DNA of 55,161 nt from Bacteroidota bacterium. GTDB lineage: Bacteria > Bacteroidota > Bacteroidia > 2-12-FULL-35-15. The notes under the pieces are model-generated. The model did not search any database, was not told the origin of the DNA, and saw only the letters and a program-made list of their open reading frames with translations. Of this stretch, positions 34,430 through 54,157 are shown one piece after another (position 1 is the stretch's first letter; the number at the start of each line of letters is the position of its first letter). The translations under genes were made by a program, and so were the position numbers. Where the stretch lies: assembly GCA_043742725.1 (NCBI GenBank), contig JAYTXX010000029.1:1-55161 (forward strand), read 5' to 3'.

Positions 34430-34576
34430 TTCAGAACTGTTTTTTATTTAACAAAAACCCACCTAATCTTTGTTTCTACAAATACTTTTAATTTTCTCAT
34501 GTTTCCATTTTTCGTACCTCCATTTCTATTTTAAAATGTTTTTTTAATTCTCCCTTCACTCCTTCTGTACTACCTC

Positions 34577-34620
34577 CCCCTCTCCTCGAATGAAGGAGAG
34601 GGGTTAGGGGTGAGGTCTAA
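34577..34620 (-). repeat. GC-rich REP-like hairpin element (same family as 52712-52749)
   Basis: A 10-bp stem CCCCTCTCCT/AGGAGAGGGG (34577-34586 / 34595-34604) is followed by GTTAGGGGTGAGG. The reverse complement matches CCTCACCCCT..CCCCTCTCC-loop-GGAGAGGGG at 52712. Confidence 0.7.
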
Positions 34621-34696
34621 ATGTTCGTGCTTGATTTTTTTGTTACTTTTTTTTATCAAGAAAAAAAGTAAACATTAAATTTTGAAACCTGCAACC

Positions 34697-38145: not shown

Positions 38146-38643
38146 TTATTTTTTCGTTTTGTTATAACATTCGAATTTCTTAAATAGTTTTTTGAATATT
38201 TTAACTGAAATCCTTATACTTCCTTTCTCTATGTCCATTGCTCTTTTAAATTCCTCTATTTCTATTTTATAAGCTTCTTTAATATTAAAATATTCATCAT
38301 ATTCTATCCAAATTAATATATCCCATTCGCAATTTTTGATGGAAGGTATTCTTGTAATTTTTGAATTGGTTCGTCCGCTTGGTCGGCAGGCTTTAATCTG
38401 ATAATACATGTTATTGAAAAAAAAATCGTATCCTTTTTTGACAACACTATTTTTTTTCATATCTGTGCAAAATGCTTCATCACTCATGCCTACAATTTTT
38501 TTAGCGGCATCTAATTCGGCAAGGTATCCTGTTATAGTTGGAGCATTGCCAATGTTTTTTTGACAGGTCAAAGCAAGTGTAACTAATTCATTTCTTAATT
38601 CAGCCAAAGATTTGGTTGGATATTTTGATAAGTCTATTCCCAT
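38146..38643 (-). CDS. Small hypothetical protein with a PD-(D/E)xK-like core
   Basis: 165 aa. KKGYDFFFNNMYYQIKACR (D...QxK) is preceded by a helical segment containing acidic residues. Assignment is motif-level only. Confidence 0.6.
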   Translation of the reverse strand: MGIDLSKYPTKSLAELRNELVTLALTCQKNIGNAPTITGYLAELDAAKKIVGMSDEAFCTDMKKNSVVKKGYDFFFNNMYYQIKACRPSGRTNSKITRIPSIKNCEWDILIWIEYDEYFNIKEAYKIEIEEFKRAMDIEKGSIRISVKIFKKLFKKFECYNKTKK

Positions 38644-38750: not shown

Positions 38751-38758
38751 TACATTTG
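38751..38758 (+). promoter_or_regulatory. Candidate -7 promoter box (TAcaTTTG)
   Basis: TAnnTTTG match 39 nt upstream of ATG 38798. It overlaps the TTG start at 38756 given in the ORF track, so that start is unlikely. Confidence 0.4.
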
Positions 38759-38797
38759 TTCTATCAAACCAACAACCCTATACTGTATTTAGTAAAT

Positions 38798-41206
38798 ATG
38801 ATTAATAAACTATTAGCCAAAACGAAAAAAACATATTCGTTTCCAATTCAATATTCAAAAGATTGTGAAACACTATCACACGCTATTTTTAATAGGACCA
38901 ATTGCTCCATCAGCCCAACTACTTTAAAAAGATTATATGGCTTTGCTAAAGTGAAAGACAAACCTTCAAAATTTACTCTTAACACACTTTCAACTTATTG
39001 TGGGTATGCTGATTGGACAGATTTTATTACAAATAGCGTTAATAAAAATGCTTCTAAAAAGAAACCGTTAAGTAAATGGGATGAACTAAAAACAAATTCT
39101 AAAACAACAAGTAATTATACATTAGATGCGTTAAAAAGTAATTCAGGATTGGCTTACAATCAAACTATAAAAAGAAAATTTGTTTATTCTTTTATTGATG
39201 AATTTCTTGAATCAAAAGCCCTGGCCACTTGTTTAATTGCAAATGGAGGGATGGGTAAATCAATTTCAATAGCCCAGGTTGTTGATGACTACTGGCTTTC
39301 AACCTCACCAAAGCATAAAGATGATATTGTTTGGTTTATTTCCGGAACAAATTTAAGAGCCTTGTTCGCCAAACAGCTTGATTTAGATAGTTGGTTTCTT
39401 GAACTCTTTTCGCTTACCAAAGGATTAGACTATAGAAATTATTTTACCAACAACCCTAAAGAAAGAAAAGGTCGAATTCTATTGATTATAGATGCACTCG
39501 ATGAATTGGTAATTAAATCGGATAATCTGGACGATCTGTTCAGAAAATTAATAGAACTTATTGGTTCGAATACAGATACACCTTGGTTCAAAGTAATACT
39601 TACAACAAGAACTTCAACATTTGAACGGTTGATTCACATTATTAAAGATTACCCGGGAATAACTAAACACTTCTACGGAGTTAACTTTGACAATTTAATT
39701 GGATCACCAAGCAACGTACCCCTTTTAAATGATGAAGAAATACTTCAAATTATTGGTATAATTAATTCTACCCCTGAATTTGTTTCATCAACTATTGATT
39801 TCGCATCTTTAAACCCATCACTCCGGCTTCAAATAGCGCATCCATATTATTTGCAATTGTTTATTCAATCTTTTATTGACAAAACAAATAATATACATTC
39901 ACATCACGATATTCTGAATGAATTTATGGCTCACCGTATTTACAAAGGAAAATATGGTTTTGAAAAAACAGAGATATTCAACGCCTTGCTTGTAAATACT
40001 GACTATGGTAGAAAAGCAACTACTACTAAAAAATCTGAAATTGCAGATTTAGTTAATCAGTACAGTAGGGCTTATAAGGAATTGCTATCATTTGGTATTC
40101 TTAAAGAAAGCTACATTCCTAATAAATTTAAGGTATATCAAACATTCGTAAAATTTGGCCACGACACACTATTTGAGTTTTTGATAGCCAAACATTGGAT
40201 AATGGAATTCAAAACCTTTAGCCATGCGCTACTATTAAATGTAACAAAAGCATATTCAGGAAATGAAAAACGAATTGATATTGTTAAACACATTGCGTTA
40301 ATGGGATTAGAAGAAGGTAAGTTTGATGAATTACAACACATTTATGAATTGAAGCTTGAAGAATACGAGTTAAACAGATTATCACATGTTTTAGGAATAC
40401 AGCTTCGTGAAAATAGAAATGCCCAAAAAATACTTATGCCGTTGTGGGCTAAAAACAAATCTGCACAGATCTACTTTTTTGAACGGTTTGTTGATCTCGA
40501 TAATCTAAGCGGTTATTATGGCAAAGCCATTTCTATTTATTTGAAAAATAAAAACAAAAAAGAGGCGCAGATTTTTGGCAGTTGTTTATTGTTTATGAAG
40601 GCTTTTCTCACAAAGGATGAATTGTTATTTAGTACAATGGTTACAAAACTAAGTACGTTTCCATTTGATCTTACCATTCACCCTTTTCCGTTGGGCAGAC
40701 AGATGGCTTGTCAAATCATAGCTTACGAGAAATTTCATCAAAGGAGGTTGGGTGCTAACATTAAAAATCAAATTCTAAGAATCGCTAAATCGGTGGCACA
40801 TAAAAAGGATTTTGTAACGGGTTTCCCTGTCGGTTACCATTTTCATGTGATGGAAGGTTTGTTTTTTGTTGATCAATACGATTTGATAATTATTCTATTT
40901 GAATCAATAGAAGCCGATTTTCCAGAAATAGACGATTACAAACAAACTTGGTTATACAAAATGATGCAGGTTTATTATAGCGTGGCACTCAAAATGGTTG
41001 GCCAGAAAGTAAAAGGAACTAATTTATTTAAAACTGTAAATTTTGAACATGTGTTTAAAGATGTTCCTTGGTATAAAAACTATTTCTTGCTTCAGTATCT
41101 CAAAGCAAAACATATTATAGTTGCTGATGCCAGAGAAAAAACAACGGTAAAAAAACAAATGGGTACGATATCCGAAAAACTTGGATTTTATTTTGGTGAA
41201 AATTAA
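38798..41206 (+). CDS. HTH-like N-terminal domain + NACHT/STAND P-loop NTPase + C-terminal helical repeat region
   Basis: N-terminus reads SISPTTLKRLYGFAK...LNTLSTYCGYADWTDFI. Walker A is LIANGGMGKSISIAQV ([AG]x4GKS). Walker B is RILLIIDALDEL (NACHT-type hhhhDxLDE). It is followed by about 500 aa of helical sequence. Confidence 0.85.
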   Translation: MINKLLAKTKKTYSFPIQYSKDCETLSHAIFNRTNCSISPTTLKRLYGFAKVKDKPSKFTLNTLSTYCGYADWTDFITNSVNKNASKKKPLSKWDELKTNSKTTSNYTLDALKSNSGLAYNQTIKRKFVYSFIDEFLESKALATCLIANGGMGKSISIAQVVDDYWLSTSPKHKDDIVWFISGTNLRALFAKQLDLDSWFLELFSLTKGLDYRNYFTNNPKERKGRILLIIDALDELVIKSDNLDDLFRKLIELIGSNTDTPWFKVILTTRTSTFERLIHIIKDYPGITKHFYGVNFDNLIGSPSNVPLLNDEEILQIIGIINSTPEFVSSTIDFASLNPSLRLQIAHPYYLQLFIQSFIDKTNNIHSHHDILNEFMAHRIYKGKYGFEKTEIFNALLVNTDYGRKATTTKKSEIADLVNQYSRAYKELLSFGILKESYIPNKFKVYQTFVKFGHDTLFEFLIAKHWIMEFKTFSHALLLNVTKAYSGNEKRIDIVKHIALMGLEEGKFDELQHIYELKLEEYELNRLSHVLGIQLRENRNAQKILMPLWAKNKSAQIYFFERFVDLDNLSGYYGKAISIYLKNKNKKEAQIFGSCLLFMKAFLTKDELLFSTMVTKLSTFPFDLTIHPFPLGRQMACQIIAYEKFHQRRLGANIKNQILRIAKSVAHKKDFVTGFPVGYHFHVMEGLFFVDQYDLIIILFESIEADFPEIDDYKQTWLYKMMQVYYSVALKMVGQKVKGTNLFKTVNFEHVFKDVPWYKNYFLLQYLKAKHIIVADAREKTTVKKQMGTISEKLGFYFGEN

Positions 41207-41528
41207 ATAATCGCAGTTAAAAGCGGAAGTCAATAGTATAAAATAAATATTTGGTTGAAGCTATAAACATGTTATACAAACTATTATTTGTTAATTAATC
41301 TGTAGCTTATTAATATTCAAATCTGTTACGTATTGTATGTCCCAGCATCAATAACACAACCTTATATTACTTCAGTGCGGCTGACGTGCACAAAAAGAGC
41401 AGGGCAGAGCGTCAATAAAAAGTACTGTGTACTTTTTTAGCGATGAGCCAGTCTGCTGGGCAAGCGTTTTACAGCCCTGAAGCGTAAGCATTTTGCGGGA
41501 AAAGCAAAAGCTTGGCGTTGGTTTTTGT

Positions 41529-41578
41529 GCTTGAGCCTCCACACATACTGGCTCAAATGTGTACCACACATTTGCCCT
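41529..41578. repeat. Type-II structured module, copy 1
   Basis: GCTTGAGCCTCCACACATACTGGCTCAAATGTGTACCACACATTTGCCCT, identical at 49 of 50 positions to 42137-42186. Contains the stem TTGAGCC/GGCTCAA and an ATGTGT segment that can pair with either of two ACACAT segments. Confidence 0.75.
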
Positions 41579-41696
41579 ATTTCTTTTGTTTCAAGACAGG
41601 ACAAACATCCTGTGGATGTTTGAGCCAGACCGAGCGAATGCTTTCTATTATTCCAATAGAAAAGAAAAACATCAAAACACATCAAAGAATAAAATT

Positions 41697-41810
41697 AAAT
41701 TGAATAACAGGCGCGTAAGCCTGAAAAGGTTGCGGGGGCTTGCCAGCTTGTGCGTTAGCCGATGACCTTTTCTTGAATTTTTGTTTCTTTTGTTTCAAGA
41801 CAAAAGAAAA
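41697..41810. repeat. Type-I structured module, copy A
   Basis: AAATTGAATAAC, hairpin CAGGC-GCGTAA-GCCTG, helix GAAAAGGT...ACCTTTTC enclosing a GC-rich insert, then CTTGAA...TTCAAG / TTCTTTTGT...ACAAAAGAA. Confidence 0.75.
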
Positions 41811-41904
41811 CAGATCGTTTTCGTGTTCGATTTTTTCTAACTTTTTTATCAAAAAAGTAAGTTTCAAAAGAAAAATATTATTTCCAACAACAAAGAACAA
41901 AACT

Positions 41905-42017
41905 AAATTGAATAACAGGCGCGTAAGCCTGAAAGCATACGGAGCAGCGTCCGCCTGTGTGTTGACCGATTATGCTTTCTTGAATTTTTGATTCTTTTGT
42001 TTCAAGACAAAAGAAAA
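41905..42017. repeat. Type-I structured module, copy B (diverged, with compensated helix)
   Basis: Same hairpin CAGGC-GCGTAA-GCCTG. The second helix is replaced by GAAAGCATA...TATGCTTTC. The terminal CTTGAATTTTTGATTCTTTTGTTTCAAGACAAAAGAAAA is the same as in copy A. Confidence 0.7.
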
Positions 42018-42045
42018 AAGAATTACTATTACAAACCACAAATAT

Positions 42046-42186
42046 AAATTGAATAGTGGGCGCATTAGCCCAAAGCGGTAGCCCGTGCTGAACTTGCCGA
42101 AGCAGAGAAACGCTAACCTGTGCCCCGACCAATCATGCTTGAGCCTCCACACATGCTGGCTCAAATGTGTACCACACATTTGCCCT
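42046..42186. repeat. Hybrid module C (type-I head with compensated hairpin, type-II tail = copy 2)
   Basis: AAATTGAATAG, then hairpin TGGGC-GCATTA-GCCCA, then an insert homologous to copy B (CCTGTGCCCCGACCAATCATGCTT), then the type-II core at 42137-42186. Confidence 0.7.
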
Positions 42187-42307
42187 GTTTATTTCTTCAT
42201 CAAGAAAAGGCAAAAACACATTACTTGTTCTCGATACATTTTTCTGAAAAAGAAAAACACTCGAACAGACAAAGCACAAAAACATTTTAATTTAAAAGCA
42301 CAAAACC

Positions 42308-42425
42308 AAATTGAATAACGGGCGCGTAAGCCTGAAAAGGTAGCGGGGGCTTGCCTGCTTGTGCGTTAGCCGATGACCTTTTCTTGAATTTTTGTTTCTT
42401 TTGTTTCAAGACAAAAGAAAAAGAA
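42308..42425. repeat. Type-I structured module, copy D
   Basis: Differs from copy A at 3 positions over the conserved core 42308-42420 (by eye). These are CAGGC to CGGGC (giving a G-T wobble) and a paired T-to-A / A-to-T change in GGTTGC...GCCAGC versus GGTAGC...GCCTGC. Confidence 0.75.
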
Positions 42426-42550
42426 AAACCTTTCATAAAGAAAAAAAGTTATTTGATTTTCTGCTTGAGCCTTCACAACTTGAAACCTGAAATATGAAAC
42501 TTGAAACTCTTCATTCCTAATTAATTTTTCCTTCATCGCTTACCCTACTT

Positions 42551-42591
42551 TTAAGGCACGCTTAAGGCACTCTACTCCCAGTCTACTCCCA
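42551..42591. repeat. Two adjacent short tandem direct repeats
   Basis: TTAAGGCAC occurs twice (42551-42559 and 42562-42570), immediately followed by TCTACTCCCA twice (42571-42580 and 42582-42591). Confidence 0.6.
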
Positions 42592-42656
42592 CTCTGTTAG
42601 TACAATGTTAATAACCCAAAATCACTAACTACAAACTATTAATTATTCATTCTTAA

Positions 42657-43823
42657 TTATCCATTTTCCATTCCCGTTAGTGCTTGCTCCAAATCAGCAA
42701 TCAACAAATCAGCATCTTCCAAACCAATATAAAGCCTAATCATATTCCATGGCAAAGGATTTTCAAAACTTTTACTTGCAGCCAAAGCACATAGCGGAAA
42801 CGCTAATGATTCATAACTACCCCAAGAGGTCGCCATCAAAAAGCGTTTCAGCGAATTACAAAAGCGTTCAACCTCCTCCACATCTTTAGCATCTAATACA
42901 ATCGAAAGCAAGCCACCGCCCTGTTTCATTTGTTTTCTTGCCAAATCCAATTGAGTATTCCTTGATGAAAAAGGATAATACACTTGTTTTATTTTAAGGT
43001 GTTTTTCTGCAAAATCAGCCACTTTCTTTGCCGACTCCGCACTTCTATTCACTCGTAGCTCAAGTGTTCTCAATCCCCTCAAAACCATTGCCGCATCCAT
43101 TGCCGAAACACAACCACCTATTGTCATATATTCTTCTGCCATCATTTTCATAATACGTTCTCTCTTTCCACACACCACACCACATACCACATCGCTGTGT
43201 CCGTTTAAATATTTTGTACCCGAATGTAGCACTAAGTCCGCACCCAACAGTATTGGACTTTGGTTCAGTGGCGAGTTGTAGCTATTGTCCACAATCGTTA
43301 CAATACCTTTTTGCCTTGCCAACTTCGTTATTGCTTCAATATCTTGTAGCTCAAAAGTCAATGAATTTGGGCTTTCCAAGTATATCAACTTTGTATTTGT
43401 CTGTATCGCTTTTTCAAAATTACTTGCCTCTCCCCCATCTACAAATGTGTGCGTAACACCATATTTTACAAGGTATTTGCTTAAAAGATTGTTCGTCCAG
43501 CTATATGGTTTTTGTACACACACAACGTGGTCTCCCGCCTTCACAACACTCATCACAGCAGCAGCCACAGCCCCACTTCCACTCGAAAACACAAGCGCGT
43601 CTTCCGCCCCTTCAAGTGCTGCCAATTTCTTTCGAAGTATTGCCACTGTTGGATTGTAGCCTCTTGTATAAAAGGGTGTTTCAAGCTCTCTGGTTAATTT
43701 TTCGCGCATCTCTGCAACCGTTTTAAAGCAATAATTGCTCGACTGAAAAATGGGTGGAGATACCGAACCATAGTATTCTTCACGCTCTTCGCCAAGATGA
43801 TTTAAAATGTATGAAATATCCAT
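42657..43823 (-). CDS. Cys/Met-metabolism PLP-dependent enzyme (cystathionine beta-lyase / gamma-synthase family)
   Basis: 388 aa. YTRGYNPT, VFSSGSGA, and the PLP-lysine context HSGTKYLNGHSDVVCG. Confidence 0.9.
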   Translation of the reverse strand: MDISYILNHLGEEREEYYGSVSPPIFQSSNYCFKTVAEMREKLTRELETPFYTRGYNPTVAILRKKLAALEGAEDALVFSSGSGAVAAAVMSVVKAGDHVVCVQKPYSWTNNLLSKYLVKYGVTHTFVDGGEASNFEKAIQTNTKLIYLESPNSLTFELQDIEAITKLARQKGIVTIVDNSYNSPLNQSPILLGADLVLHSGTKYLNGHSDVVCGVVCGKRERIMKMMAEEYMTIGGCVSAMDAAMVLRGLRTLELRVNRSAESAKKVADFAEKHLKIKQVYYPFSSRNTQLDLARKQMKQGGGLLSIVLDAKDVEEVERFCNSLKRFLMATSWGSYESLAFPLCALAASKSFENPLPWNMIRLYIGLEDADLLIADLEQALTGMENG

Positions 43824-43874
43824 TGTGTAAGTATTTATATGTTTATTTTGTGAGTGAAATATATTCGCATTAAT

Positions 43875-44243
43875 TTATTTTTTAAAGATAAAATATACTG
43901 CTAACATCAAGAACAAAAAGCCAAGCAGATGATTCCACTTTAGTGTTTCGTCTTTAAAAAATAGCATTGTAAAAGCAACAAACACAATGAGTGTTATCGC
44001 TTCTTGAATAACCTTCAGTTGCAACAAAGAAAAGGGACCGCCATTATCCTTAAATCCAATCCTATTTGCTGGTACCTGAAAAGCATATTCAAATAGAGCT
44101 ATAGCCCAACTCACCAACACAATTGCAACAATGCCAAGGTTTTCAAACCACTTCATTTCCTTAAATTTTAAGTGTCCGTACCAAGCCAATGTCATAAACA
44201 CATTAGAAATAACAAGCATGATAATCGTATAAAATCCGCGCAT
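43875..44243 (-). CDS. Small DMT-superfamily membrane protein (DUF486-like)
   Basis: 122 aa with 4 hydrophobic helices. The N-terminus is IMLVISNVFMTLAWYGHLKF. Confidence 0.75.
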   Translation of the reverse strand: MRGFYTIIMLVISNVFMTLAWYGHLKFKEMKWFENLGIVAIVLVSWAIALFEYAFQVPANRIGFKDNGGPFSLLQLKVIQEAITLIVFVAFTMLFFKDETLKWNHLLGFLFLMLAVYFIFKK

Positions 44244-44487
44244 AATCTTTTTAATTTAGCTCCCCAAAAGTATAATTCGGCAAGCAATTTTCATTGCTTT
44301 TCGCATTATTTTTCTTTGGCTGGCAACACTTCGCCCCGAAACATCAGTAAAATAAAGCACTACAGAGCCCAACCATAAAAATAAGTTTTAAGCAATCTTC
44401 TTTGCTTTTTGATGTTGTGCTGCTTTGGGAGGATAAAAACGAAGTTGTGGCTACAAAATGGTGTTTCTGTAATGTTTTTGGGTGGTA

Positions 44488-45369
44488 CTACTTGCGAATA
44501 ATGTATATTTGACTGGAATAGGTTTTGCCGGTTCGGGCGCCAGCCACATTTGAACGAAATCCGTTCCACAGCGATTTAATAATATTCGTTTTGCCTGTCT
44601 TTATCTTTTCGCTCAACATCGAAACATAAAAAGAATCAAATACCATTGGTAAAATTTGTACTGTTTTTAACCCGTGTTTCTTAAAAATAGACTCGATATC
44701 TTTTGGAGTAAAATGATATAAATGTCTTGGCACATCATAAGCTGCCCATTGCTCTTTATATGTTTTTGCATCCAAAGAATTGCAATTAGGAACAGCAATA
44801 ATTATAATTCCATTCGTCTTTATTAATCGTTTTAGGTCTTCTATTCTTTCGTTTAATTTAGGAACATGCTCTAACACATGCCACATTGTAATTACATCAA
44901 ATCTTTCGCTTTCAAGATTCTTAATTTCTAGCTCTTCTCTTACATCTAAACCATAATTTTCTGTTGCCATTTTTCGAGCTTCGGGACTTGGCTCAACTCC
45001 TAATGTATTCCATTTTGCTATTTTACAAGTGTTCAAAAACTCGCCTGTTCCACAGCCAATATCCAATATTTTTCCTGTTTTAAAGTGCTTCGAAATAAGT
45101 TGAAGTTTCTTAAGTAATGTATATTTTCTAACCAATTGGTAGGTAGAATTAACAAATCCTTTCTTTGTATTTGAGTGAGAAACATACTCTTCCGATTTAT
45201 AATATTCGCCCAACTTACTTTCTTCTGGTCTAGGATTGGTAAACCTAAAGTCACAAGAATTACACTGAACAATATCAAATGTTTCACGTGAAACAGTGTG
45301 ATCAACACAAGACAAAAAGAGTTTTGTTTCGGTTGAGTTACATATTGGACAATTTTTAAGTGTTTCCAT
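44488..45369 (-). CDS. Class I SAM-dependent methyltransferase with an N-terminal Cys4 zinc ribbon
   Basis: CPICNS...CNSCDF followed by SAM motif I ILDIGCGTGEF and post-I/II motifs (FDVITMWHVLEHV). Confidence 0.85.
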   Translation of the reverse strand: METLKNCPICNSTETKLFLSCVDHTVSRETFDIVQCNSCDFRFTNPRPEESKLGEYYKSEEYVSHSNTKKGFVNSTYQLVRKYTLLKKLQLISKHFKTGKILDIGCGTGEFLNTCKIAKWNTLGVEPSPEARKMATENYGLDVREELEIKNLESERFDVITMWHVLEHVPKLNERIEDLKRLIKTNGIIIIAVPNCNSLDAKTYKEQWAAYDVPRHLYHFTPKDIESIFKKHGLKTVQILPMVFDSFYVSMLSEKIKTGKTNIIKSLWNGFRSNVAGARTGKTYSSQIYIIRK

Positions 45370-45395
45370 AAATTGTGTTTCTGTTCCACGTGGAA

Positions 45396-47300
45396 CTATC
45401 TTCCCAAATATACCATTAAAATAGAAATGTCAGACGGAGTTATGCCAGAGATTCTTGATGCCTGACCAATGGTTTTGGGCTTTATTTTTGTTAGTTTTTC
45501 TCTTGCCTCTTTTGACAAAGATGTTAGTCTTAAATAATCAAAATCATCATGAAGAACAAGGTCTTCTAATCTGGTTTGTTTTTCAGCAAGCTCATATTCT
45601 TTTGAAATATATCCTTCGTATTTCATCAATATTTCTGCTTGCTCAATGCTTTCTATATCATAATTAGAAATAAACGATTTAACTTTGGGAGAGCTTATTG
45701 CAAAGTCTAAAAGTGTGATTGTTGGCCTGGTTAAAACACCAAACATCTTTACCTTTTGTGTGATTGGAGCAGATCCAATAATTTCTAAACATGAGTTTAT
45801 TTCGGCTGGCTCTATACTTTCTGTTTTGAAATACTTTATAATTTCTTGTGTTTGTTTTTGTTTCAAATTTACCCTTTCCAGGCGTTCTTTTGATGCTAAA
45901 CCCAACTCATACGATTTTGGTGTCAACCGAATATCTGCATTATCCTGGCGCAACAAAATACGATATTCTGCGCGAGAAGTAAACATTCGGTATGGCTCTT
46001 CGGTTCCTTTGGTAACTAAATCATCTATTAAAACTCCAATATATGCTTCCGAACGCTGAAGAATAAATGGCGCCCTATTATTTATTTTTAAGTGTGCATT
46101 TATTCCTGCCATTAGTCCTTGACAAGCTGCTTCTTCATATCCTGTTGTTCCATTGATTTGCCCTGCGAAATAAAGATTTTTTACAAGCTTTGTTTCAAGT
46201 GTAAGATCTAGTTGTTGAGGAGGAAAATAATCATATTCTATAGCGTATCCTGGACGGAACATTTTCACGTTTTCAAAGCCTGGTATTTTTTTAAGTGCCT
46301 TATACTGAACATCTTCTGGCAAAGAAGTGGAAAAGCCGTTTACATAAATTTCCACCGTATTCCAGCCTTCGGGCTCAACAAATATTTGGTGACGATTGCG
46401 CTCCGCAAAGCGAGTAATTTTATCCTCAATACTTGGACAATACCTTGGTCCTAAGCCTTGAATACGACCAGAAAACATTGGCGATTTCTCGAAACCTGTT
46501 CTTAAAATATCGTGAACCTCATCATTTGTATAAGTTATAAAGCAAGGAATTTGACCTGATGGACCATTTGTAAAAGCGTCTTTTCTTTTGGTTTTAAATG
46601 CAAATTGTTCTACATCTAAATAGGAAAATTTGCTGGGATTTTCATCTCCATGTTGCACTTCCATTTTCGAATAATCCAAAGAACGACCATCAATACGTGG
46701 TGGAGTTCCTGTTTTCATTCGCCCTGCTTCAAAACCTAATTGAACGAGCTGTTCGGTAATTCCGGTGCTCGCTTTTTCGCCTGCTCTTCCGCCACCATAT
46801 TGTTTTTCGCCCAAATGTATTAATCCATTTAAAAAAGTACCATTGGTTAAAACGACTGATTTTGCTCGTATTTCAATATCCATTCCTGTAATTACACCGC
46901 AAGCTTTTCCGTCTTCTACAATTAAACCCTTAACCATATCTTGCCAAAAATCAAGGTTGGGAGTCGCTTCCAGCATTAAACGCCATTCTTCTGCAAACTT
47001 CCATCTATCGCTTTGTGCTCTGGGGCTCCACATTGCCGGTCCTTTTGAGCGATTAAGCATACGAAACTGAACAGCTGTTTTGTCTGTAATAATTCCTGAA
47101 TAACCACCCATTGCATCAATCTCTCTCACAATCTGACCTTTTGCAATGCCTCCCATTGCTGGATTACAGCTCATTTGCGCAATGGTTTGCATGTTCATTG
47201 TAATAAGTAGGGTAGAAGAGCCCATGTTTGCTGCAGCAGCTGCTGCTTCGCAACCAGCATGACCAGCACCTACTACTATTACATCGTATTCCTTAAACAT
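45396..47300 (-). CDS. mnmG: tRNA uridine 5-carboxymethylaminomethyl modification enzyme MnmG (GidA)
   Basis: 634 aa. The FAD motif [16 protein letters not shown] and [21 protein letters not shown] are highly characteristic. Confidence 0.97.
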
Positions 47301-47320
47301 TGTTTTGTTTTAATGGATTG

Positions 47321-47328
47321 CAAAAGTA
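47321..47328 (-). promoter_or_regulatory. Candidate -7 promoter box for mnmG (reverse complement TActTTTG)
   Basis: CAAAAGTA on the + strand, 20 nt upstream of the minus-strand ATG at 47300. Confidence 0.4.
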
Positions 47329-47410
47329 CTGCTTTTTTGTAGAATTATTTTCTTATACATTCGAAAATGGAGCGCTGTATTTTTCTTTACATAAAAATAA
47401 ATATTAAAAG

Positions 47411-47418
47411 TATTTTTG
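47411..47418 (+). promoter_or_regulatory. Candidate -7 promoter box (TAttTTTG)
   Basis: TAnnTTTG match 20 nt upstream of the ATG at 47439. Confidence 0.4.
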
Positions 47419-47438
47419 TTTTTATAAAATCCGCTTAA

Positions 47439-48389
47439 ATGAAAACACATGCCCATTTTTTAACAACGATTCTTTTTCTAATTATTTTTTCGAACATAGA
47501 AGCGCAAGAAGAAAACCTAGTTTTAAAAACAGCTACTGGCGATATTTATGGCACATTAACATTGCCTGATGATAAAAAAAACATTCCGATTGTATTGATT
47601 ATTGCTGGCTCTGGACCAACAGACAGAAATGGAAATAATGAATCTATGGAAAATAATTCGTTGAAATTTTTGGCTGAAGAATTAAGAAAAAATGGTTTTG
47701 CATCATTGCGTTATGATAAAAGAGGTATTGCAAAAAGCCAAGAGGCTGGAGGTGAAGAAATAAATTTACGTTTTGATAATTATATAAATGATGTTAAAGA
47801 TTGGGTTGAATTATTATCAAATGATAAGCGTTTTTCTAAAATAATAATTGCAGGACATAGCGAAGGGTCTTTGCTCGGAATTGTTGCTTCGGTAAACAAC
47901 AAAAAAGTAAATGCTTTAATTTCTATTGCTGGTGCTGGTCGTCCAGCTGATGAAATATTAAAAGAACAATTGGACAAAACGCCACAATCGGTCAAAGATG
48001 TTGTATTTCCAATGATTGACACACTTAAACAAGGTGATACAATAGGAAATGTTCCTGTTATTTTTTATGCTCTATTTCGCCCAAGTGTACAACCTTATAT
48101 GATTTCTTGGTTTAAATATAATCCTCAAATAGAAATTAAAAAACTAACTATTCCTATTTTAATTTTACAAGGTAATACTGATATTCAAGTTAAAGAAACA
48201 GACGCAAATTTATTAGCAACAGCACAACCTACAGCAGAATTAAAACTGATTAAAAATATGAATCATGTTTTAAAAGATTGCGACACTACGGATAAAGAAA
48301 AACAATTGCCAATTTATTCTAACCCTGATTTGCCTTTGAATAAAGAGTTTGTAGAGGTGTTAGTTGGTTTTGTTAAAAAGATAAAATAA
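47439..48389 (+). CDS. Secreted alpha/beta-fold hydrolase
   Basis: Signal peptide, nucleophile elbow GHSEGS, and a late NMNHVLKD (catalytic His context). Confidence 0.85.
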   Translation: MKTHAHFLTTILFLIIFSNIEAQEENLVLKTATGDIYGTLTLPDDKKNIPIVLIIAGSGPTDRNGNNESMENNSLKFLAEELRKNGFASLRYDKRGIAKSQEAGGEEINLRFDNYINDVKDWVELLSNDKRFSKIIIAGHSEGSLLGIVASVNNKKVNALISIAGAGRPADEILKEQLDKTPQSVKDVVFPMIDTLKQGDTIGNVPVIFYALFRPSVQPYMISWFKYNPQIEIKKLTIPILILQGNTDIQVKETDANLLATAQPTAELKLIKNMNHVLKDCDTTDKEKQLPIYSNPDLPLNKEFVEVLVGFVKKIK

Positions 48390-48404
48390 GCTTTTCTATT
48401 TATT

Positions 48405-48412
48405 TAGATTTG
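48405..48412 (+). promoter_or_regulatory. Candidate -7 promoter box (TAgaTTTG)
   Basis: TAnnTTTG match 17 nt upstream of the ATG at 48430. Confidence 0.4.
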
Positions 48413-48429
48413 TGTTCAACTTAATTTGA

Positions 48430-49236
48430 ATGAATAAAACGATTTTTTATATTTCTTTCTTTTCTTGTTTTTCTTTGAGCTTTGTTTCTCGTGGACAAAT
48501 AATAAACATTGATAAAACAGATACATCGAAGTATGATAAAAAAACTGTTATAAAATTAAATTTTGGAAGCGGTTTAGAAATTGATAAACAAAAAAACACC
48601 GTTTACGATGCAAGTAATGCTCTTGATTTGTCTCTGCAAAAATCAAAAGAATTATTGGTATTAGCAACCGGTTTTAGATTTACTTATAATGGACCTGAAG
48701 ATATTTTAAATACAGGTTTTGTTCATTTGCGTTATCGGCACGACTATAATAATAAAATTCATCCCGAAGCTTTTGTTCAATACCAATGGGATACTAAAAG
48801 AGGAATAGAATACAGAACTTTGGGTGGTGCAAATATTCGTTGGAATAATTACTTACATCCAAAATTTAATTTAATACTTGCAACAGGATTAATGTATGAA
48901 CAAGAACGCTGGAACTATACAGCAGTTGTTGATTCGGTAGATATTCCTACTAATACTAAAACAGTAGAAACAAAATATATTAAATCAAATTCATATATGA
49001 AATTTGAAATAAAAGTGAGTGATAATAGTGATTTATTTTTTACCACATTTATTCAAACCCGACCCGATAAATTTTTTATTTATCCACGCATTGCAAATGT
49101 TTTGAAATGGAATGTAAACGTAACAAAACACGTTGCTATTGAATTAAATTTTAATAGCATTTATGATACACGACCAACGGTTGCTATTTCAAAATTTTAC
49201 TTTAGTTTTTCAGATATGATAACTGTAAAATTTTAA
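48430..49236 (+). CDS. Putative outer-membrane beta-barrel protein
   Basis: Signal peptide, alternating hydrophobic pattern, and a C-terminal ...ITVKF ending in Phe as in many OMP barrels. Confidence 0.55.
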   Translation: MNKTIFYISFFSCFSLSFVSRGQIINIDKTDTSKYDKKTVIKLNFGSGLEIDKQKNTVYDASNALDLSLQKSKELLVLATGFRFTYNGPEDILNTGFVHLRYRHDYNNKIHPEAFVQYQWDTKRGIEYRTLGGANIRWNNYLHPKFNLILATGLMYEQERWNYTAVVDSVDIPTNTKTVETKYIKSNSYMKFEIKVSDNSDLFFTTFIQTRPDKFFIYPRIANVLKWNVNVTKHVAIELNFNSIYDTRPTVAISKFYFSFSDMITVKF

Positions 49237-49247
49237 TATTATAAAAT

Positions 49248-50234
49248 TTACAATCCAAATTGAGCAGACAATTCTAACATTTTTATAATTGGCTTTTTTG
49301 CTTCACGAATTAAATTTTCTGATAAAATAATTTCGGGTTGTTCGTATTTAAGGCAATTATAAAGCTTTTCAAGCGTATTTAATTTCATGTGAGGACAATC
49401 ATTACAAGCACAAGAATTATTTGGTGGAGCTGGTATAAATACCTTTGTTGGATTTAATTTTTGCATCTGATGAATTATTCCAGATTCTGTTGCAACTATA
49501 AATTCTGTTGCATCCGATTTTTTTGAATAATTTAATATACCTGTTGTGCTTCCAATATAATCAGCTATTTCAAGTAAGTTTGCTTCACATTCAGGATGTG
49601 CTAATAATTTAGCATTCGGATGTTGATTTTTAAGTTTAGTAATTTTTTCTAACGAAAATATTTCGTGAACCATACAAGCTCCATCCCATAAAACCATATT
49701 TCTGCCTGTTTTTTTATTAATATAAGCACCTAAATTTTTATCAGGCGCAAATATTATTTTTTGGTCTTTAGGTAAACTTTCAACTATTTGAACTGCGTTG
49801 GTAGAAGTACAAACAATATCGGTTAATGTTTTTAATTCGGCAGTACAATTGATGTATGAAATTACTAAATGATCGGGATGAAGTTTTTTAAATGCAGCAA
49901 ATTTTTCAGCAGGACAAGAATCCGCTAATGAACAACCAGCTCGTAAATCAGGTAATAAAACTTTTTTGGATGGTGATAAAATTTTTGCTGTTTCAGCCAT
50001 AAAATGAACTCCTGCAAAAACAATAATATCGGCAGTTGTTTTAGCTGCTTCTTGCGATAATCCCAAACTATCGCCAATATAATCGGCAATATCCTGTATG
50101 TCGGCATCTTGGTAGTAATGGGCAAGAATAATGGCATTTTTTTCTTTTTTTAGTTTGTTTATTTCGGTGAACAAATCTAATGATAAATCTATTGGAATAT
50201 CCAGAAAACCTTTTTGTTTCAAATCATCAACCAT
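49248..50234 (-). CDS. nadA: Quinolinate synthase
   Basis: 328 aa. [25 protein letters not shown] and three Cys ligand contexts ([20 protein letters not shown]). Confidence 0.95.
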
Positions 50235-50735
50235 ATCAATAATATATTTTAATATTTAAATATAAATAAAAATTGTTGTTGTTATTGGTCTGTTAGTAAT
50301 GTGTATAAAATTATCTAAAAAAATTGCTTTTAAGGGTTCTTACACTTCACCAACAGTAATAAAAAAGTTACATTTATATAATGTGTTGAAAAGCAGAAGA
50401 ATTGTGCTTTATCAACAATGTGTTAGTAACGTTATTAGATGATAACTTTCATACAAAAATACTGTTAATTATGTAATAAACTTGTTGATGGTTTACTTAA
50501 AGTTGTAATAAAAAAATGTAGGATTATAAAAAAATTAAGTCAAGGAATATTGTATTTCAACAAAGCAAGAAAAATCTTCAACTGTTTTACAACACAATAA
50601 ATTCTTATGAACACATTTTGTGTTGATAAAAATAAAAATATAGCCTTAATTATCAATGCTTTATTTTTCAACTTTACAAACGTGTTAATTGTGGTTAATA
50701 AGTACAAAAAACAGTAATAAATCAATATTTAAACT

Positions 50736-51170
50736 ATGAAAATAGCAATAGGTTGCGACCATGCGGCATTTCAATTAAAAGAAAAACTAAAACCCTATTT
50801 ACTTTCAAAAGGGTTCGATATAAAAGATTTTGGTTGTTATTCCGAAGAACGAGCAGATTACCCAGATTATGCACATCCTGTTGCAAATGCAGTAGAAAAT
50901 AAAGAATTTGATTTTGGTTTATTAATGTGTGGAAGTGGAAACGGAATAAACATGACCGCAAACAAACACAAAGAAATTCGTTCGGCACTTTGTTGGAATG
51001 CCGAAATAGCAGAGCTTGCACGTTTACACAACGATGCAAATATTTTGACATTACCAGCAAGATATATTACTGAAGAGGAAGCAAAAAAATGTATTGATGT
51101 TTTTTATTCAACAACATTTGAAGGAGGAAGACATGCGGATAGAGTAAAAAAAATAAATGAAGGATGTTAA
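50736..51170 (+). CDS. rpiB: Ribose-5-phosphate isomerase B
   Basis: 144 aa. MKIAIGCDHAAFQLKE, CGSGNGINMTANK, RLHNDANILTLPAR. Confidence 0.93.
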   Translation: MKIAIGCDHAAFQLKEKLKPYLLSKGFDIKDFGCYSEERADYPDYAHPVANAVENKEFDFGLLMCGSGNGINMTANKHKEIRSALCWNAEIAELARLHNDANILTLPARYITEEEAKKCIDVFYSTTFEGGRHADRVKKINEGC

Positions 51171-52711
51171 ATAAAACTAGAATATTAATAACCCTATTGT
51201 TTCCTACAATTATTTTTGCACAGGAAAAAGATACTGTTGCAATGCGCTATTCTAAAAATGTTACAGCAGCAGGAATGAGCAAGAATTTACATGTGTTGGC
51301 ATCGGACGAATATGAAGGAAGAGAAACAGGAAAGAAGGGACAAAAAATGGCAGCAGAATATATTGCTAATCAATTTAAGCAAGCAGGAATTCCGCCATAC
51401 AAAGAAAACACCTATTACCAACAATTTCCGTTGATGTTAATTTTACCAAGCCCCGCAGAAGTTTCAATCAACGAAAAAAAATACCAAGCAAATAAAGATT
51501 ATTATAATTTTTCGGGACTGTCCGAAGGAACAGTAACAACAGACAAAATTTTATTTTTAGGTTATGGTATTGATGAAGAAAAATATAGCGACTATAAAAA
51601 TGTGGATGTAAAAAATCGTGAAGTAATGATTTTGGAAGATGAACCATATTCAAAAGATTCTACATCGTTGATTACAGGAAAAAAATCAGCATCTATGTGG
51701 TCAACATATTATAGAACAAAAATAGAAAAGGCAAAAGAAAAAGGAATTAGTACTCTATTAATAATAGTAAAAAACATTGAAAGCAACATTGCCGAGAACA
51801 AACATCGTTTGGAATCTTCATCAATGAAATTGGAATTGAACAAAGATGAAATGCGTGTGATTTATATTTCGGAAGAAATGGCAAATGCACTATTGAAAAA
51901 ACAAAACGTAACGAAAATAAAAAACAAAATTTCCAAAACAGGTTTGCCACAAAACAAAGAAGCAAAAACAAATTTGCAAATAATAATTAAAAATAATGTT
52001 CAAAAAATAAATTCCGAAAACGTATTGGGATATATTGAAGGAACAGATTTAAAAAACGAACTAATTGTTGTTACTGCCCATTATGACCATTTGGGAAAAG
52101 ATGGAGATATTGTTTTTAATGGAGCAGATGATGATGGTTCTGGAACGGTTGCTGTTATTGAGCTTGCGCAAGCATTTGCAAAAGCAAAGCAAGAAGGAAA
52201 AGCACCAAGAAGAAGCATGTTGTTTATGACAGTTGCTGGAGAAGAAAAAGGATTATTGGGTTCATCATATTATGTTGATCATCCCGAATTTCCATTAAAA
52301 AATACGGTTTGCGATTTGAATATTGATATGATTGGAAGGCTTGATGAAAAACATGCAAACAATTCAAACTATGTGTATTTAATAGGTTCCGACAAGTTGA
52401 GTTCGCAACTTCACAACATTAGCGAAAGCGCAAATAAATTATATACAAACATTGATTTGGATTATATTTATAATGATGAAAAAGATAAAAACCGTTTTTA
52501 TTATCGTTCCGACCACTATAATTTTGCAAAGAGCGGAATCCCTGTAATCTTCTATTTTAATGGTGTTCATAAAGATTATCACAAAGAAACCGATGAAGTA
52601 GAAAAAATAGATTTTAATAAAATGGAAAAAATTACACGCTTGGTTTTTTTCACAGCTTGGGAAGTAGCAAACAGAAACGAACGAATTGTAGTAGATTCAA
52701 ACAAAAAATAA
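51164..52711 (+). CDS. M28-family metallopeptidase (aminopeptidase)
   Basis: Signal peptide; NVLGYIEG, VTAHYDHLG, GADDDGSGTVAVIE, GEEKGLLGS. Its start overlaps the rpiB stop by 7 nt. Confidence 0.9.
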   Translation: MLNKTRILITLLFPTIIFAQEKDTVAMRYSKNVTAAGMSKNLHVLASDEYEGRETGKKGQKMAAEYIANQFKQAGIPPYKENTYYQQFPLMLILPSPAEVSINEKKYQANKDYYNFSGLSEGTVTTDKILFLGYGIDEEKYSDYKNVDVKNREVMILEDEPYSKDSTSLITGKKSASMWSTYYRTKIEKAKEKGISTLLIIVKNIESNIAENKHRLESSSMKLELNKDEMRVIYISEEMANALLKKQNVTKIKNKISKTGLPQNKEAKTNLQIIIKNNVQKINSENVLGYIEGTDLKNELIVVTAHYDHLGKDGDIVFNGADDDGSGTVAVIELAQAFAKAKQEGKAPRRSMLFMTVAGEEKGLLGSSYYVDHPEFPLKNTVCDLNIDMIGRLDEKHANNSNYVYLIGSDKLSSQLHNISESANKLYTNIDLDYIYNDEKDKNRFYYRSDHYNFAKSGIPVIFYFNGVHKDYHKETDEVEKIDFNKMEKITRLVFFTAWEVANRNERIVVDSNKK

Positions 52712-52749
52712 GCCTCACCCCTTTATCCCCTCTCCAAAAGGAGAGGGGG
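52712..52749 (+). repeat. GC-rich REP-like hairpin element (same family as 34577-34620, opposite orientation)
   Basis: CCTCACCCCTTTATCCCCTCTCC-AAAA-GGAGAGGGGG with a 9-bp stem (52727-52735 / 52740-52748), right after the M28 gene stop. Confidence 0.7.
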
Positions 52750-52774
52750 CGAACGGTGTTAAAGAAAGAGAAGT

Positions 52775-54157
52775 ATGTCAACAGTATTAGAAATATTTTT
52801 AGAAGCATCAGAAAAAAAAGCATTTGATGTTGAGCATCGCAAAACCATAAAAACCAATATTGCGAAATACGATGCAAAAGTTTTGGAAGGAAAAGAACAA
52901 TTCTCAAACCTTGAATTAGCAAGAACAAGAGCGGCTTCGCTTAAACAAAAATCGGTTGATAATTTAGAAAAATATTTAGTAGAATTTGAAGCAGCATTTA
53001 TTAAGCGTGGCGGAAAAGTAATATGGGCGCAAGATGCGGAAGAAGCACTAAAAGAATCGCTTCAAATAATGAAACGCGCAAATGCAAAAACGGTGGTGAA
53101 AGCAAAATCAATGACTACCGAAGAAGTGCATTTTAATAGCGCTTTGCAAGCCGAAGGAATTGAAAGCATTGAAACCGATTTGGGCGAATACATTGTACAG
53201 CTTCGCAACGAAGCGCCTTACCATATTGTAACACCAGCAATGCACCTTTCTAAAGAAGATGTAGCAATAACATTCAACGAGAAAAAAGGAACACCAAAAG
53301 AATTTACGCCCGAACAAATTACAAATTATGTTCGCCTGGAATTACGCGAAAAATATAGCAAAGCCGAAGTTGGTGTAAGCGGAGCAAATTTTTTAATTGC
53401 CGATGTTGGAGCCATTGCTGTTACTGAAAATGAAGGAAACGGATTAATGTCGTCAGCATTTCCGAAAGTACAAATTGCTATTGTTGGATTGGAAAAAATA
53501 ATTCCTTCTATTGCCGATTTAGATTTGTTTTGGTCGCTACTTGCAACACACGGAACAGGACAACAACTTACGGTTTATAACACCATTTATACAGGACCAA
53601 AACAAGCAGGAGAAATAGATGGTCCAGAAGAAATGTATGTGATTTTGTTAGATAATGGTCGCACTACATTATTAGCCGAAACAGCGCAGCGCAGAGCACT
53701 TTCGTGCATACGCTGTGGAGCTTGTTTAAATGCTTGTCCTGTATATCAAACCATTGGTGGGCACTCTTACGGAACAACTTATAGTGGACCAATCGGCTCT
53801 GTTATAACGCCTTATTTACAAGGCATTGACGAGTTTAAACATTTGAGTTATGCTTCAACATTGTGTGGAAAATGCACCGATGTTTGTCCTGTAAAAATTG
53901 ATATTCATAAGCTTTTGTTATTGAACAGAAGCGATGCTGTTAAAAAAGGATTTACTACAAAAACAGAAAATTGGGTTTGGTTTTTTTGGAAAGGAGCAAT
54001 GCTCAAGCGTAGTAAAATGGATAAAGGTGGAGCAAAACTAAAAAACTTTATGATTAAACAATTCTTTAAAAAACAATGGGGCGAACGAAGAGAGCTGCCA
54101 CAAGTTGCACAAAAATCATTTAACCAAATTTGGAGAGAACGAAAAGGAATGAAGTAG
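52775..54157 (+). CDS. lutB: LutB/LldF-type L-lactate utilisation iron-sulfur protein
   Basis: 460 aa. A DUF162/LUD region is followed by two 4Fe-4S motifs, CIRCGACLNACPVY and CGKCTDVCPV. Confidence 0.9.
   Translation: MSTVLEIFLEASEKKAFDVEHRKTIKTNIAKYDAKVLEGKEQFSNLELARTRAASLKQKSVDNLEKYLVEFEAAFIKRGGKVIWAQDAEEALKESLQIMKRANAKTVVKAKSMTTEEVHFNSALQAEGIESIETDLGEYIVQLRNEAPYHIVTPAMHLSKEDVAITFNEKKGTPKEFTPEQITNYVRLELREKYSKAEVGVSGANFLIADVGAIAVTENEGNGLMSSAFPKVQIAIVGLEKIIPSIADLDLFWSLLATHGTGQQLTVYNTIYTGPKQAGEIDGPEEMYVILLDNGRTTLLAETAQRRALSCIRCGACLNACPVYQTIGGHSYGTTYSGPIGSVITPYLQGIDEFKHLSYASTLCGKCTDVCPVKIDIHKLLLLNRSDAVKKGFTTKTENWVWFFWKGAMLKRSKMDKGGAKLKNFMIKQFFKKQWGERRELPQVAQKSFNQIWRERKGMK

Follow-up and report, generated by a model that had tools for sequence, protein, structure and literature searches.

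A tandem array of modular, structured intergenic repeats in a Bacteroidota genome, and its relatives in metagenomes and phages

Several classes of multi-copy, structured repeat have been described between bacterial genes. The BOX (boxA-boxB-boxC), ERIC/IRU and Correia elements are modular non-coding sequences of 100–200 nt that occur in many copies at gene ends, are co-transcribed, have inverted repeats at their termini, and do not extend beyond one species or genus. ToxI-like RNAs are encoded by near-identical tandem repeats of 34–36 nt directly upstream of toxN/abiQ. The repetitive extragenic palindromes (REPs) of E. coli and Pseudomonas are single palindromes of 20–40 nt with a GTAG/CGTC head, and alternate in orientation within bacterial interspersed mosaic elements (BIMEs). 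Among Bacteroidota, multicopy small RNA (sRNA) families are known in Bacteroides, and FopS, deposited in Rfam according to its description, consists of a single-stranded seed followed by a terminator hairpin (PMC11697453). The dCas12f-sigmaE guide RNAs of Flavobacteriia combine a stem-loop scaffold with a 3' guide, sometimes in tandem, and are located directly after dcas12f (PMC13472631). Here we analyzed a 1.45-kb non-coding gap in contig JAYTXX010000029.1 of a Bacteroidota bacterium (GTDB lineage Bacteroidia; 2-12-FULL-35-15; GenBank assembly GCA_043742725.1), whose full 55,161 nt are referred to as the window. The gap, which lies between a gene with a weak NACHT (STAND) match on its left and a convergent pyridoxal-phosphate (PLP) enzyme gene on its right, holds five or six head-to-tail copies of a structured repeat unit (U, A, B, C, D, and a relic), all on the plus strand. 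These units are local members of a large modular family, in which a variable core is followed by a constant 3' module, and this family is dispersed, array-forming, variable in copy number, and without a fixed gene partner.

Four of the units open with AAATTGAATA (41697, 41905, 42046, and 42308), and the unit 5' half, AAATTGAATANNNGGCGCNTNAGCC, matches exactly on the plus strand at these four positions and nowhere else in the 55 kb, for a chance expectation of 0.01. An AT-rich hairpin, TTCTTTTGTTTCAAGACAAAAGAA, is found at 41785, 41992, and 42396, and with three mismatches at 41581. This hairpin, termed H3 (TTCTTTTGT-TTCAAG-ACAAAAGAA), closes units A, B, and D, and a degenerate form of it closes U. 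A double-hairpin module, designated "type-II", is located at 41529 and 42137, with a partial third copy at 42452–42477. An initial annotation, made from the letters of the window alone, had reported four such units plus a related one upstream; the four are exact matches, and the upstream unit is a degenerate copy (U). Features are listed below with bit scores from a covariance model of the window units (R1) or a second covariance model (R2), which were used alongside a hidden Markov model (HMM) of the 3' module.

41373–41607, plus strand: unit U, a degenerate upstream copy whose H3 part scores just 14.7 bits with R2
41373–41391, plus strand: 5' module of unit U, CAGTGCGGCTGACGTGCAC, resembling that of contig L178 (TAGTGCGGCAGACGTGGAC)
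41458–41477, plus strand: helix-1-like hairpin of unit U, GGGC..GCCC
41529–41605, plus strand: 3' part of unit U, with a box-like CTTGAG (41530–41535), a nested type-II double hairpin (41529–41577), and a disrupted H3 (41580–41605)
41697–41809, plus strand: unit A, R2 68.7 bits; AAATTGAATA at 41697–41706, helix 1 at 41708–41723 (CAGGC/GCCTG), helix 2 pairing 41724–41731 with 41764–41771 (AAAAGGTT/GACCTTTT), box CTTGAA at 41772–41777, linker TTTTTG, H3 at 41784–41809 with loop TTCAAG at 41794–41799
41905–42016, plus strand: unit B, R2 64.4 bits; helix 1 at 41916–41931, helix 2 pairing 41932–41939 with 41971–41978 (AAAGCATA/TATGCTTT; compensation at four pairs in comparison with A and D), box at 41979–41984, H3 at 41991–42016
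42046–42210, plus strand: unit C, R1 55.7 bits, 3' module below detection by R2; AAATTGAATA at 42046–42055, helix 1 at 42057–42072 (TGGGC/GCCCA; two compensated pairs), a long core, box-like CTTGAG at 42138–42143, nested type-II double hairpin at 42137–42185, and a degenerate terminal hairpin at about 42192–42210 that contains ATCAAG
42308–42420, plus strand: unit D, R2 70.3 bits; helix 1 at 42319–42334, its second pair being a G.T wobble; helix 2 pairing 42335–42342 with 42375–42382, box at 42383–42388, H3 at 42395–42420
42452–42480, plus strand: relic, the truncated start of another type-II module (CTGCTTGAGCCTTCACAAC), from a repeat-family search and the sequence
34606–34673, plus strand: a diverged second family member, R2 28 bits (E = 4.7e-5, filters off); box CTTGAT at 34630–34635, U-rich linker, hairpin TTACTTTTTT/AAAAAAGTAA with loop ATCAAG at 34655–34660

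The 3' arm of helix 2 comes to an end one base ahead of the box in units A, B, and D. Several other copies of the family have small GC-rich palindromes nested in loops or between box and H3, hence the type-II module is most simply read as another such small palindrome, lodged between box and H3. The diverged copy at 34606–34673 lies between convergent genes 7 kb from the cluster, abutting a REP-like palindrome (34570–34617), and preserves both its box-loop pairing and its stem through changed bases.

The 3' module has the layout CTTGAA-TTTTTG-N-TTCTTTTGT-TTCAAG-ACAAAAGAA-N', i.e., a 6-nt box, a U-rich linker of ~6 nt, and a 10-bp A/U hairpin with a 6-nt loop complementary to the box, and provides a near-invariant tail of 36 bases. 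It is intact in A, B, and D, and degenerate in U and C. The exact H3 24-mer was detected in >120 metagenome contigs among the matches listed (human-gut assemblies and many JGI/ENA contigs), as well as in 13 stretches of viral contigs. It is almost always preceded by CTTGAAYTTTTGN, as in A, B, and D, and farther 5' lie GC-rich hairpin cores of several classes. A variable core whose last stem abuts the box was found in A, B, and D, in contigs L169, L128, L093, and L178, and in the elements of class 2. In L169, the window units have two homologues, both full-length and separated by 280 nt (84% mean column identity), whose inner cores are nearer to unit B than B is to A or D. The unit 5' half is lineage-specific: an exact-pattern scan for AAATTGAATANNNGGCGCNTNAGCC gave no match in genome, metagenome, and viral collections. 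Nothing meaningful came up when the gap and a class-1 element were compared by blastn with plasmids and with records of cultured phages. The idea that H3-like A/U hairpins might be a generic feature was tried and dropped, with 44 found against 44 in a mirrored control. At 2390–2470 in L169, the second copy is followed by a microsatellite-like (GAAGAAGAGAAAAA)n run, which begins in the 3' arm of H3.

We evaluated the fold of the window units on an alignment that combined A, B, and D with the 5' portion of C, using 500 shuffles and slid partners as controls. Helices 1–3 were 93.8% paired, compared to 39–58% in slid controls, and six pairs were doubly changed (two in helix 1 of C and four in helix 2 of B), compared to 2.7 ± 1.1 in shuffles, of which 5 of 500 reached six. 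The compensated pairs noted in the initial annotation for these two helices are thus borne out. Units A and D do differ at three positions, as it had stated (41709 A>G, 41731 T>A, and 41747 A>T), but the proposal that the latter two changes form one base pair did not survive, as these positions are not partners in predicted folds and each change lengthens a small inner hairpin in D. Since the four copies in the window are insufficient by themselves, the statistical proof of the fold comes from the wider family.

Across the family, covariation is real in at least three helices: H3, the box-loop contact, and helix 2. In a 28-sequence alignment with the box-loop contact and H3 included as a pseudoknot, 98.4% of cells were paired (91.9% in shuffles, with 0 of 500 reaching the observed value, and 52–60% with partners slid by 1–3 columns), and 23 cells were doubly changed, compared to 6.8 in shuffles. 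The bases flanking H3, N and N', covary: of 119 non-identical copies, 106 had a Watson–Crick pair (40 expected from base frequencies) and 8 a G.T pair, with all four pair types represented (T-A 53, G-C 31, C-G 20, and A-T 2). Unit B has an A.A mismatch at this position, and pairing at offsets 2–8 beyond N:N' was not clearly above expectation. The box is CTTGAA and the loop TTCAAG in most copies, and variants change together: CTTGAC/GTCAAG in three copies (one in L215 and two in L217), CTTGAT/ATCAAG in L218 and a gut class, and CGTGCC with GGCAAG or GGCAGG in L188, L206, and L219. Rare changes in the H3 stem are likewise compensated (TTCTTTCGT/ACGAAAGAA, TCC../..GGA, the top two pairs of the second L169 copy, and the diverged copy at 34606–34673 of the window), and helix 2 stays paired through different sequences in A and D, B, L169, L128, L093, and L178. 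Hence, the CTTGAA...TTCAAG unit ends and the structure-preserving divergence pointed out in the initial annotation both hold in the window and extend to ~100 related copies elsewhere.

Within the 3' module, the paired segments run a-b-a'-b' and leave no spacer around the loop, so that the two helices would have to alternate or else coexist as a strained pseudoknot. By prediction, H3 on its own is worth about −8 kcal/mol, and the box-loop hairpin about −4 kcal/mol. The position of the U-rich linker opposite an A-rich strand would suit major-groove triples.

Direct arrays such as the one in the window are typical of the family: R2 and the module HMM revealed additional diverged copies beside the exact ones, and same-strand neighbors spaced 176–409 nt apart were found in at least seven other loci (L205, L163, L093, L181 with three copies, L131, L130, and L169). 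After removal of duplicates, copies were located in 25 convergent but only 4 divergent contexts (p = 1e-4), and where the flanking genes pointed in the same direction, 29 copies were sense and 12 antisense (p = 0.012). Canonical terminators follow H3 in some copies (L091, L187, and L200). The neighboring genes are unrelated housekeeping and phage genes, in one gut case those for a polyphosphate kinase and a PHO4 transporter: the 361 open reading frames (ORFs) within 2.5 kb of copies formed 278 clusters, and the neighbors of 130 non-redundant copies fell into 186 Pfam families, none of which occurred more than twice. A possible tie to STAND or nuclease genes, which the initial annotation had marked for checking, finds no support in these counts. 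No recurrent transposase, TnpB, integrase, or reverse transcriptase was found within 2.5 kb of the 130 copies, and no Y1/HUH transposase, integrase, Cas12f, TnpB, or IscB-like ORF, nor a gene for the REP-associated transposase RAYT (a Y1 transposase), was detected with Pfam among the ORFs of the window.

Two related phage contigs (L203 and L213, with portal and terminase matches and with flanking genes 90% and 75% identical) carry a ~180-nt element at the same intergenic site in opposite orientations. These phage copies are embedded in a mosaic of CCCCTCTCC..GGAGAGGGG palindromes. A separate REP-like family of GC-rich palindromes, CCTCACCCCTAACCCCTCTCC-GAAG-GAGAGGGG, is found between genes in the window (34570–34617 and 52711–52758) and repeatedly adjoins H3-module elements as mosaics, including in phage contigs (L203:5300–5990, L213:1745–2570, L204, L206, and L207). 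In seven human-gut contigs (L096, L104, L134, L136, L146, L172, and L194), two members of the H3-module family lie ~660 nt apart in opposite orientation, one with a standard H3 and the other with TTCTTTCGT/ACGAAAGAA, box CTTGAT, and loop ATCAAG, and spurious ORFs of ~106 aa run across them.

We then compared the locus with its syntenic counterparts, using homologues of the PLP enzyme gene from 80 genomes of uncultured Bacteroidota (L002–L081; ≤84% amino-acid identity). The flanking genes, which lie outside the element, are as follows.

38756–41206, plus strand: left flank, a gene coding for 816 aa, whose NACHT (STAND) match is weak and falls short of the Pfam cut-off (E = 2.7e-4)
42657–43823, minus strand: right flank, a Cys/Met-metabolism PLP-dependent enzyme gene, convergent on the cluster

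The PLP enzyme gene is the edge of a conserved block (42657–54157) that is syntenic in ~50 of the 80 relatives. Nothing to the left of the gap is ever syntenic: neither the STAND gene, which is co-oriented with the repeat units, nor a 165-aa ORF lacking a Pfam match (38146–38643), nor the genes farther left are found beside the PLP gene. In the relatives, the gap past the PLP stop codon is mostly 0–200 nt, and the element is absent from this site in all 80. A single clear copy (L033, 50.9 bits) was detected in 1.3 Mb of their sequence, and its 3' module alone brought it up, the GC-rich cores not being found in any of the 80 with blastn and R1. Since the left side is never syntenic and the cores are missing in these relatives, the cluster sits at a synteny break and is lineage-specific. 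The only public contig encoding an identical PLP protein (L001, Logan contig SRR23617268_3650848) ends within the H3 of unit D, at ~42393, which is a typical short-read assembly break at a repeat; draft genomes and metagenome-assembled genomes probably contain too few copies of the family.

As the initial annotation had held, the gap contains no credible ORF: all those within it are short (≤84 aa), and their concatenated translations had no match among 5.8 billion proteins. A coding relic had been suggested by AAATTGAATAR, with stop codons in two frames, as the possible 3' end of a gene; this was ruled out, the upstream peptides being unconserved and a stop codon directly preceding the motif in unit A. 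Between the last relic and the PLP stop codon (42480–42610), short tandem duplications are present (CTTGAAAC/ATGAAACTTGAAAC, plus TTAAGGCAC and TCTACTCCCA, two copies of each). The entire gap is bracketed by a direct repeat of 22 nt with 86% identity (TACAAACTATTATTTGTTAATT at 41275–41296 and TACAAACTATTAATTATTCATT at 42630–42651), which could be the mark of an inserted segment or a chance match between AT-rich sequences. Elsewhere in the window, and unrelated to the array, are a PIN-PhoH fusion protein gene (21551–22879) and an extracytoplasmic function (ECF) sigma gene (4085–4621, minus strand) adjoining an RNase R gene (4729–7038, plus strand); this ECF sigma gene is the only one in the window and is 37 kb from the array.

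Overall, we lean, by no wide measure, towards interpreting the locus as a tandem array, all on one strand, of a structured and modular repeat of intergenic regions, which has a wide distribution among Bacteroidota and their phages and whose fold is kept for action as a single strand, most likely as RNA. The array would then probably be a copy-number-variable structured repeat active in transcripts. Each copy would combine a GC-rich core, variable and made up of one to three hairpins, with the near-invariant 3' module (box CTTGAA, U-rich linker, 10-bp A/U H3, and 6-nt loop), predicted to fold as a pseudoknot or to toggle between two hairpins. The element may multiply as DNA, through local duplication and through insertion or recombination into gene-end regions, and would have entered this locus at the synteny break beside a variable STAND gene. 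Its fold would be maintained because the single strand is the active form, most likely an RNA in the 3' untranslated part of an upstream co-oriented transcript, where it could serve as a protecting or insulating structure at the 3' end, or as a handle for a host factor. Three observations favor RNA in 3' untranslated regions: copies are biased towards the sense orientation, they avoid promoter regions, and in some of them a canonical terminator comes after H3. The structured family proposed in the initial annotation therefore stands, yet not as a discrete RNA family specific to this locus, as copies are dispersed, found in phages, present in either orientation, and absent from the syntenic site of relatives.

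Several observations weigh against this interpretation, and support for RNA over single-stranded DNA is modest. Wobble leaves the strand undecided: N:N' considered alone had looked clear (8 G.T vs 1 C.A), but over all pairs the asymmetry weakened to 12 G.T-type vs 6 A.C-type. The twelve antisense copies and the inverted phage copy sit poorly with a strictly sense-strand role, no mobilizing enzyme was found near the copies or in the window, and neither terminal inverted repeats nor target-site duplications were seen, with just two insertion contexts (L203 and L213) compared. A stem of ≥7 bp abuts the box in 46% of copies vs 28% of shuffles, which is a moderate enrichment only. Finally, most copies were collected through an exact H3 match, which hides variation in H3 and inflates its apparent invariance, and the taxonomy of most matches is taken from contig names and type IX secretion system (T9SS) domains rather than from classified genomes.

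The main rival explanation, which we consider unlikely if worth keeping in view, is that the element is a single-stranded DNA substrate for recombination or transposition (comparable to palindrome-associated derivatives of IS200/IS605, to REP/RAYT sites, or to the attC sites of integrons), one strand of which is read by a trans-acting HUH or tyrosine enzyme, any role as RNA being incidental. This would account for a core conserved in structure and not in sequence, the sharp 3' boundary right past the hairpin, the lack of terminal inverted repeats and target duplications, the two related phages whose copies face opposite ways at one site, the nested small palindromes and direct arrays, and a wobble asymmetry too slight to favor RNA. 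However, none of the enzymes concerned (Y1/HUH transposase, RAYT, or integrase) is encoded in the window or recurs within 2.5 kb of the 130 copies, REP heads (GTAG/CGTC) and attC boxes (RYYYAAC/GTTRRRY) are absent from the units, and the 29:12 sense bias and the avoidance of divergent regions fit transcription better. Same-strand tandem units of ~110 nt with conserved folds and a 140–260 nt spacing could instead suggest a cluster of sibling sRNAs, comparable to LhrC1-5, Qrr, or FopS, with their own promoters in the A-rich spacers and acting by base pairing in trans, and multicopy sRNA families do exist in Bacteroides (PMC11697453). We find this rather improbable, as the units lack a conserved single-stranded seed (the most conserved part being the paired 3' module), no intrinsic terminator follows H3 in the window, copies are found among the structural genes of phages, facing either way and nested with further repeats, positions are not kept syntenically in relatives, and neither FopS, GibS, nor any other Rfam family matches.

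More improbable still, in our view, is a 3' pseudoknot serving as the handle of a trans-acting machine that operates through RNA, either an omega-RNA-like scaffold with a flanking guide for an effector that is encoded elsewhere or the 3' recognition structure of a reverse-transcribed element similar to a short interspersed nuclear element (SINE). The SINE-like version would explain the constant 3' ends, variable 5' cores, sharp 3' boundaries, lack of inverted repeats or duplications, and spread among phages. Taken specifically as scaffold-plus-guide RNAs of the TnpB omega-RNA or dCas12f-sigmaE type, with the module as the 3' end of the scaffold and the sequence after H3 as the guide, the units would match in that conservation stops sharply past N' and gives way to variable sequence, and in that dCas12f guides have a stem-loop scaffold and a 3' guide, sometimes in tandem, in Bacteroidota (PMC13472631). 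Yet published guide RNAs lie immediately downstream of dcas12f, and no Cas12f, TnpB, or IscB-like ORF is encoded in the 55 kb or recurs near the 130 copies. The sequences after H3 are nearly identical between copies in two of the arrays (L181 and L130), no target within the window was found for the 16-nt stretches that follow H3 in A, B, D, and the 34.6-kb copy, and the HEARO and IS605-orfB models gave no match, all of which makes this specific form very unlikely. Least probable, to the point of being almost negligible, is neutral decay of local duplicates, with "compensation" arising from hairpin-templated mutation (template switching) or chance. The window itself has only four copies, related sequences may exceed shuffles without any structure, and helix 2 of unit B could owe its multi-base swap to a single template switch, but the family-wide counts largely refute this explanation: helices are kept through different sequences in independent copies on eight unrelated contigs (L169, L128, L093, L178, L215, L217, L218, and L206) and at 34606–34673 of the window, the box-loop contact is more than a simple inverted repeat with adjacent arms, and 98.4% of cells are paired vs 52–60% for slid partners.

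If the family is as widespread as these scans suggest, it would be among the commonest conserved non-coding structures in Bacteroidota, including gut species and their phages, and yet is missing from Rfam. A 36-nt module that is nearly unchanged across very different contigs, with a covarying loop contact, implies a conserved partner or mechanism. On the practical side, the element breaks short-read assemblies and seeds spurious ORFs, and could be a marker by which phages are connected with their hosts among Bacteroidota. With a pseudoknot that mutation can break and restore, it is also a tractable test case for RNA-level vs DNA-level selection on bacterial intergenic repeats, and an omega-RNA-like or SINE-like nature, if true, would make it a new class of bacterial RNA element.

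The absence of a named RNA family, as anticipated from the letters alone, was confirmed by a search of the whole window against Rfam 15 at gathering thresholds, which gave no match (FopS, GibS, HEARO, IS605-orfB, and ribozymes included); the same search on 33 other element-bearing loci returned nothing on the elements, and we found no description of the sequence in the literature on multicopy non-coding RNAs and on the REP and MITE (miniature inverted-repeat transposable element) families of Bacteroidota. The best match of Flavo-1 (RF01705) in the window, at 18.1 bits (E = 1.4; threshold 42 bits), is a near-miss on the wrong strand (minus strand, 41964–42047) through the A/U hairpin alone, and Flavo-1 had no match in 13 element-rich loci. 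Flavo-1 is, like the element described here, a multi-copy Bacteroidota motif of unassigned function with an A/U-rich apical stem, and the two share the words UUAGCC and GUAGC; it differs in being a single long irregular hairpin without box, linker, or H3. Matches to Flavo-1 have been reported sense, antisense, or outside transcripts (PMC9723704). One small contig that carries an H3-module element (L091) also contains a genuine Flavo-1 (159–262, minus strand, 70.8 bits) and a SAM-II long-loop riboswitch (1794–1853, minus strand, 63.1 bits). FopS and GibS are also multi-copy non-coding Bacteroidota families, also seen in a phage, but FopS has a different architecture and no Rfam family matches the units; FopS and Bacteroides-2 were both rejected as identities. 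With dCas12f guides and TnpB omega-RNAs, compared by description only, the element shares a structured scaffold, a sharp 3' end followed by variable sequence, and tandem copies, whereas their effector gene is adjacent and none is found here or near other copies; in the window, a dCas12f-rpoE operon is further opposed by the lack of a Cas12f/TnpB domain in any ORF and by the 37-kb distance to the only ECF sigma gene.

Other familiar categories fit no better. A ToxI-like array is opposed by the ~113-nt length of the units, their unequal spacers, and a downstream gene that is the convergent PLP enzyme. An intrinsic terminator does not fit in the window, as H3 is A/U-rich with no U tract after it, and a terminator scan of the window returned just the two type-II hairpins, not above chance. 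For integron attC sites and clusters of attC sites lacking an integrase (CALIN), the sole GTT-type site, GTTAGCC, breaks the RRR of GTTRRRY and has no RYYYAAC partner. For a MITE, the two ends are not inverted complements of each other, the 5' one reading GAGTGAAGCTAAGGCC.. in class 1 and AAATTGAATA in the window, and no duplication flanks the copies in the two phage contexts. The BIME-like REP cluster, which had been offered as the conservative alternative, comes closer: the dispersal of the element is similar, and REPs and BIMEs are likewise extragenic hairpins that form mosaics with other repeats, are enriched between convergent genes, and act as 3'-end stabilizers in RNA. An ordinary REP or BIME is nevertheless not what is seen, as the units are ~113 nt long with a multi-helix core (three helices) and a covarying 36-nt module, no GTAG or CGTC precedes any stem, and all units of the array are on the plus strand, in direct rather than alternating order. 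The pneumococcal BOX, enterobacterial ERIC/IRU, and Neisseria Correia elements resemble the family in their conserved end modules, variable middle, stable fold, and presence that varies between strains. They have no sequence relation to the element described here, which lacks terminal inverted repeats, forms direct arrays, and carries its 36-nt module with a covarying hairpin-loop contact across gut and other metagenomes and phages.

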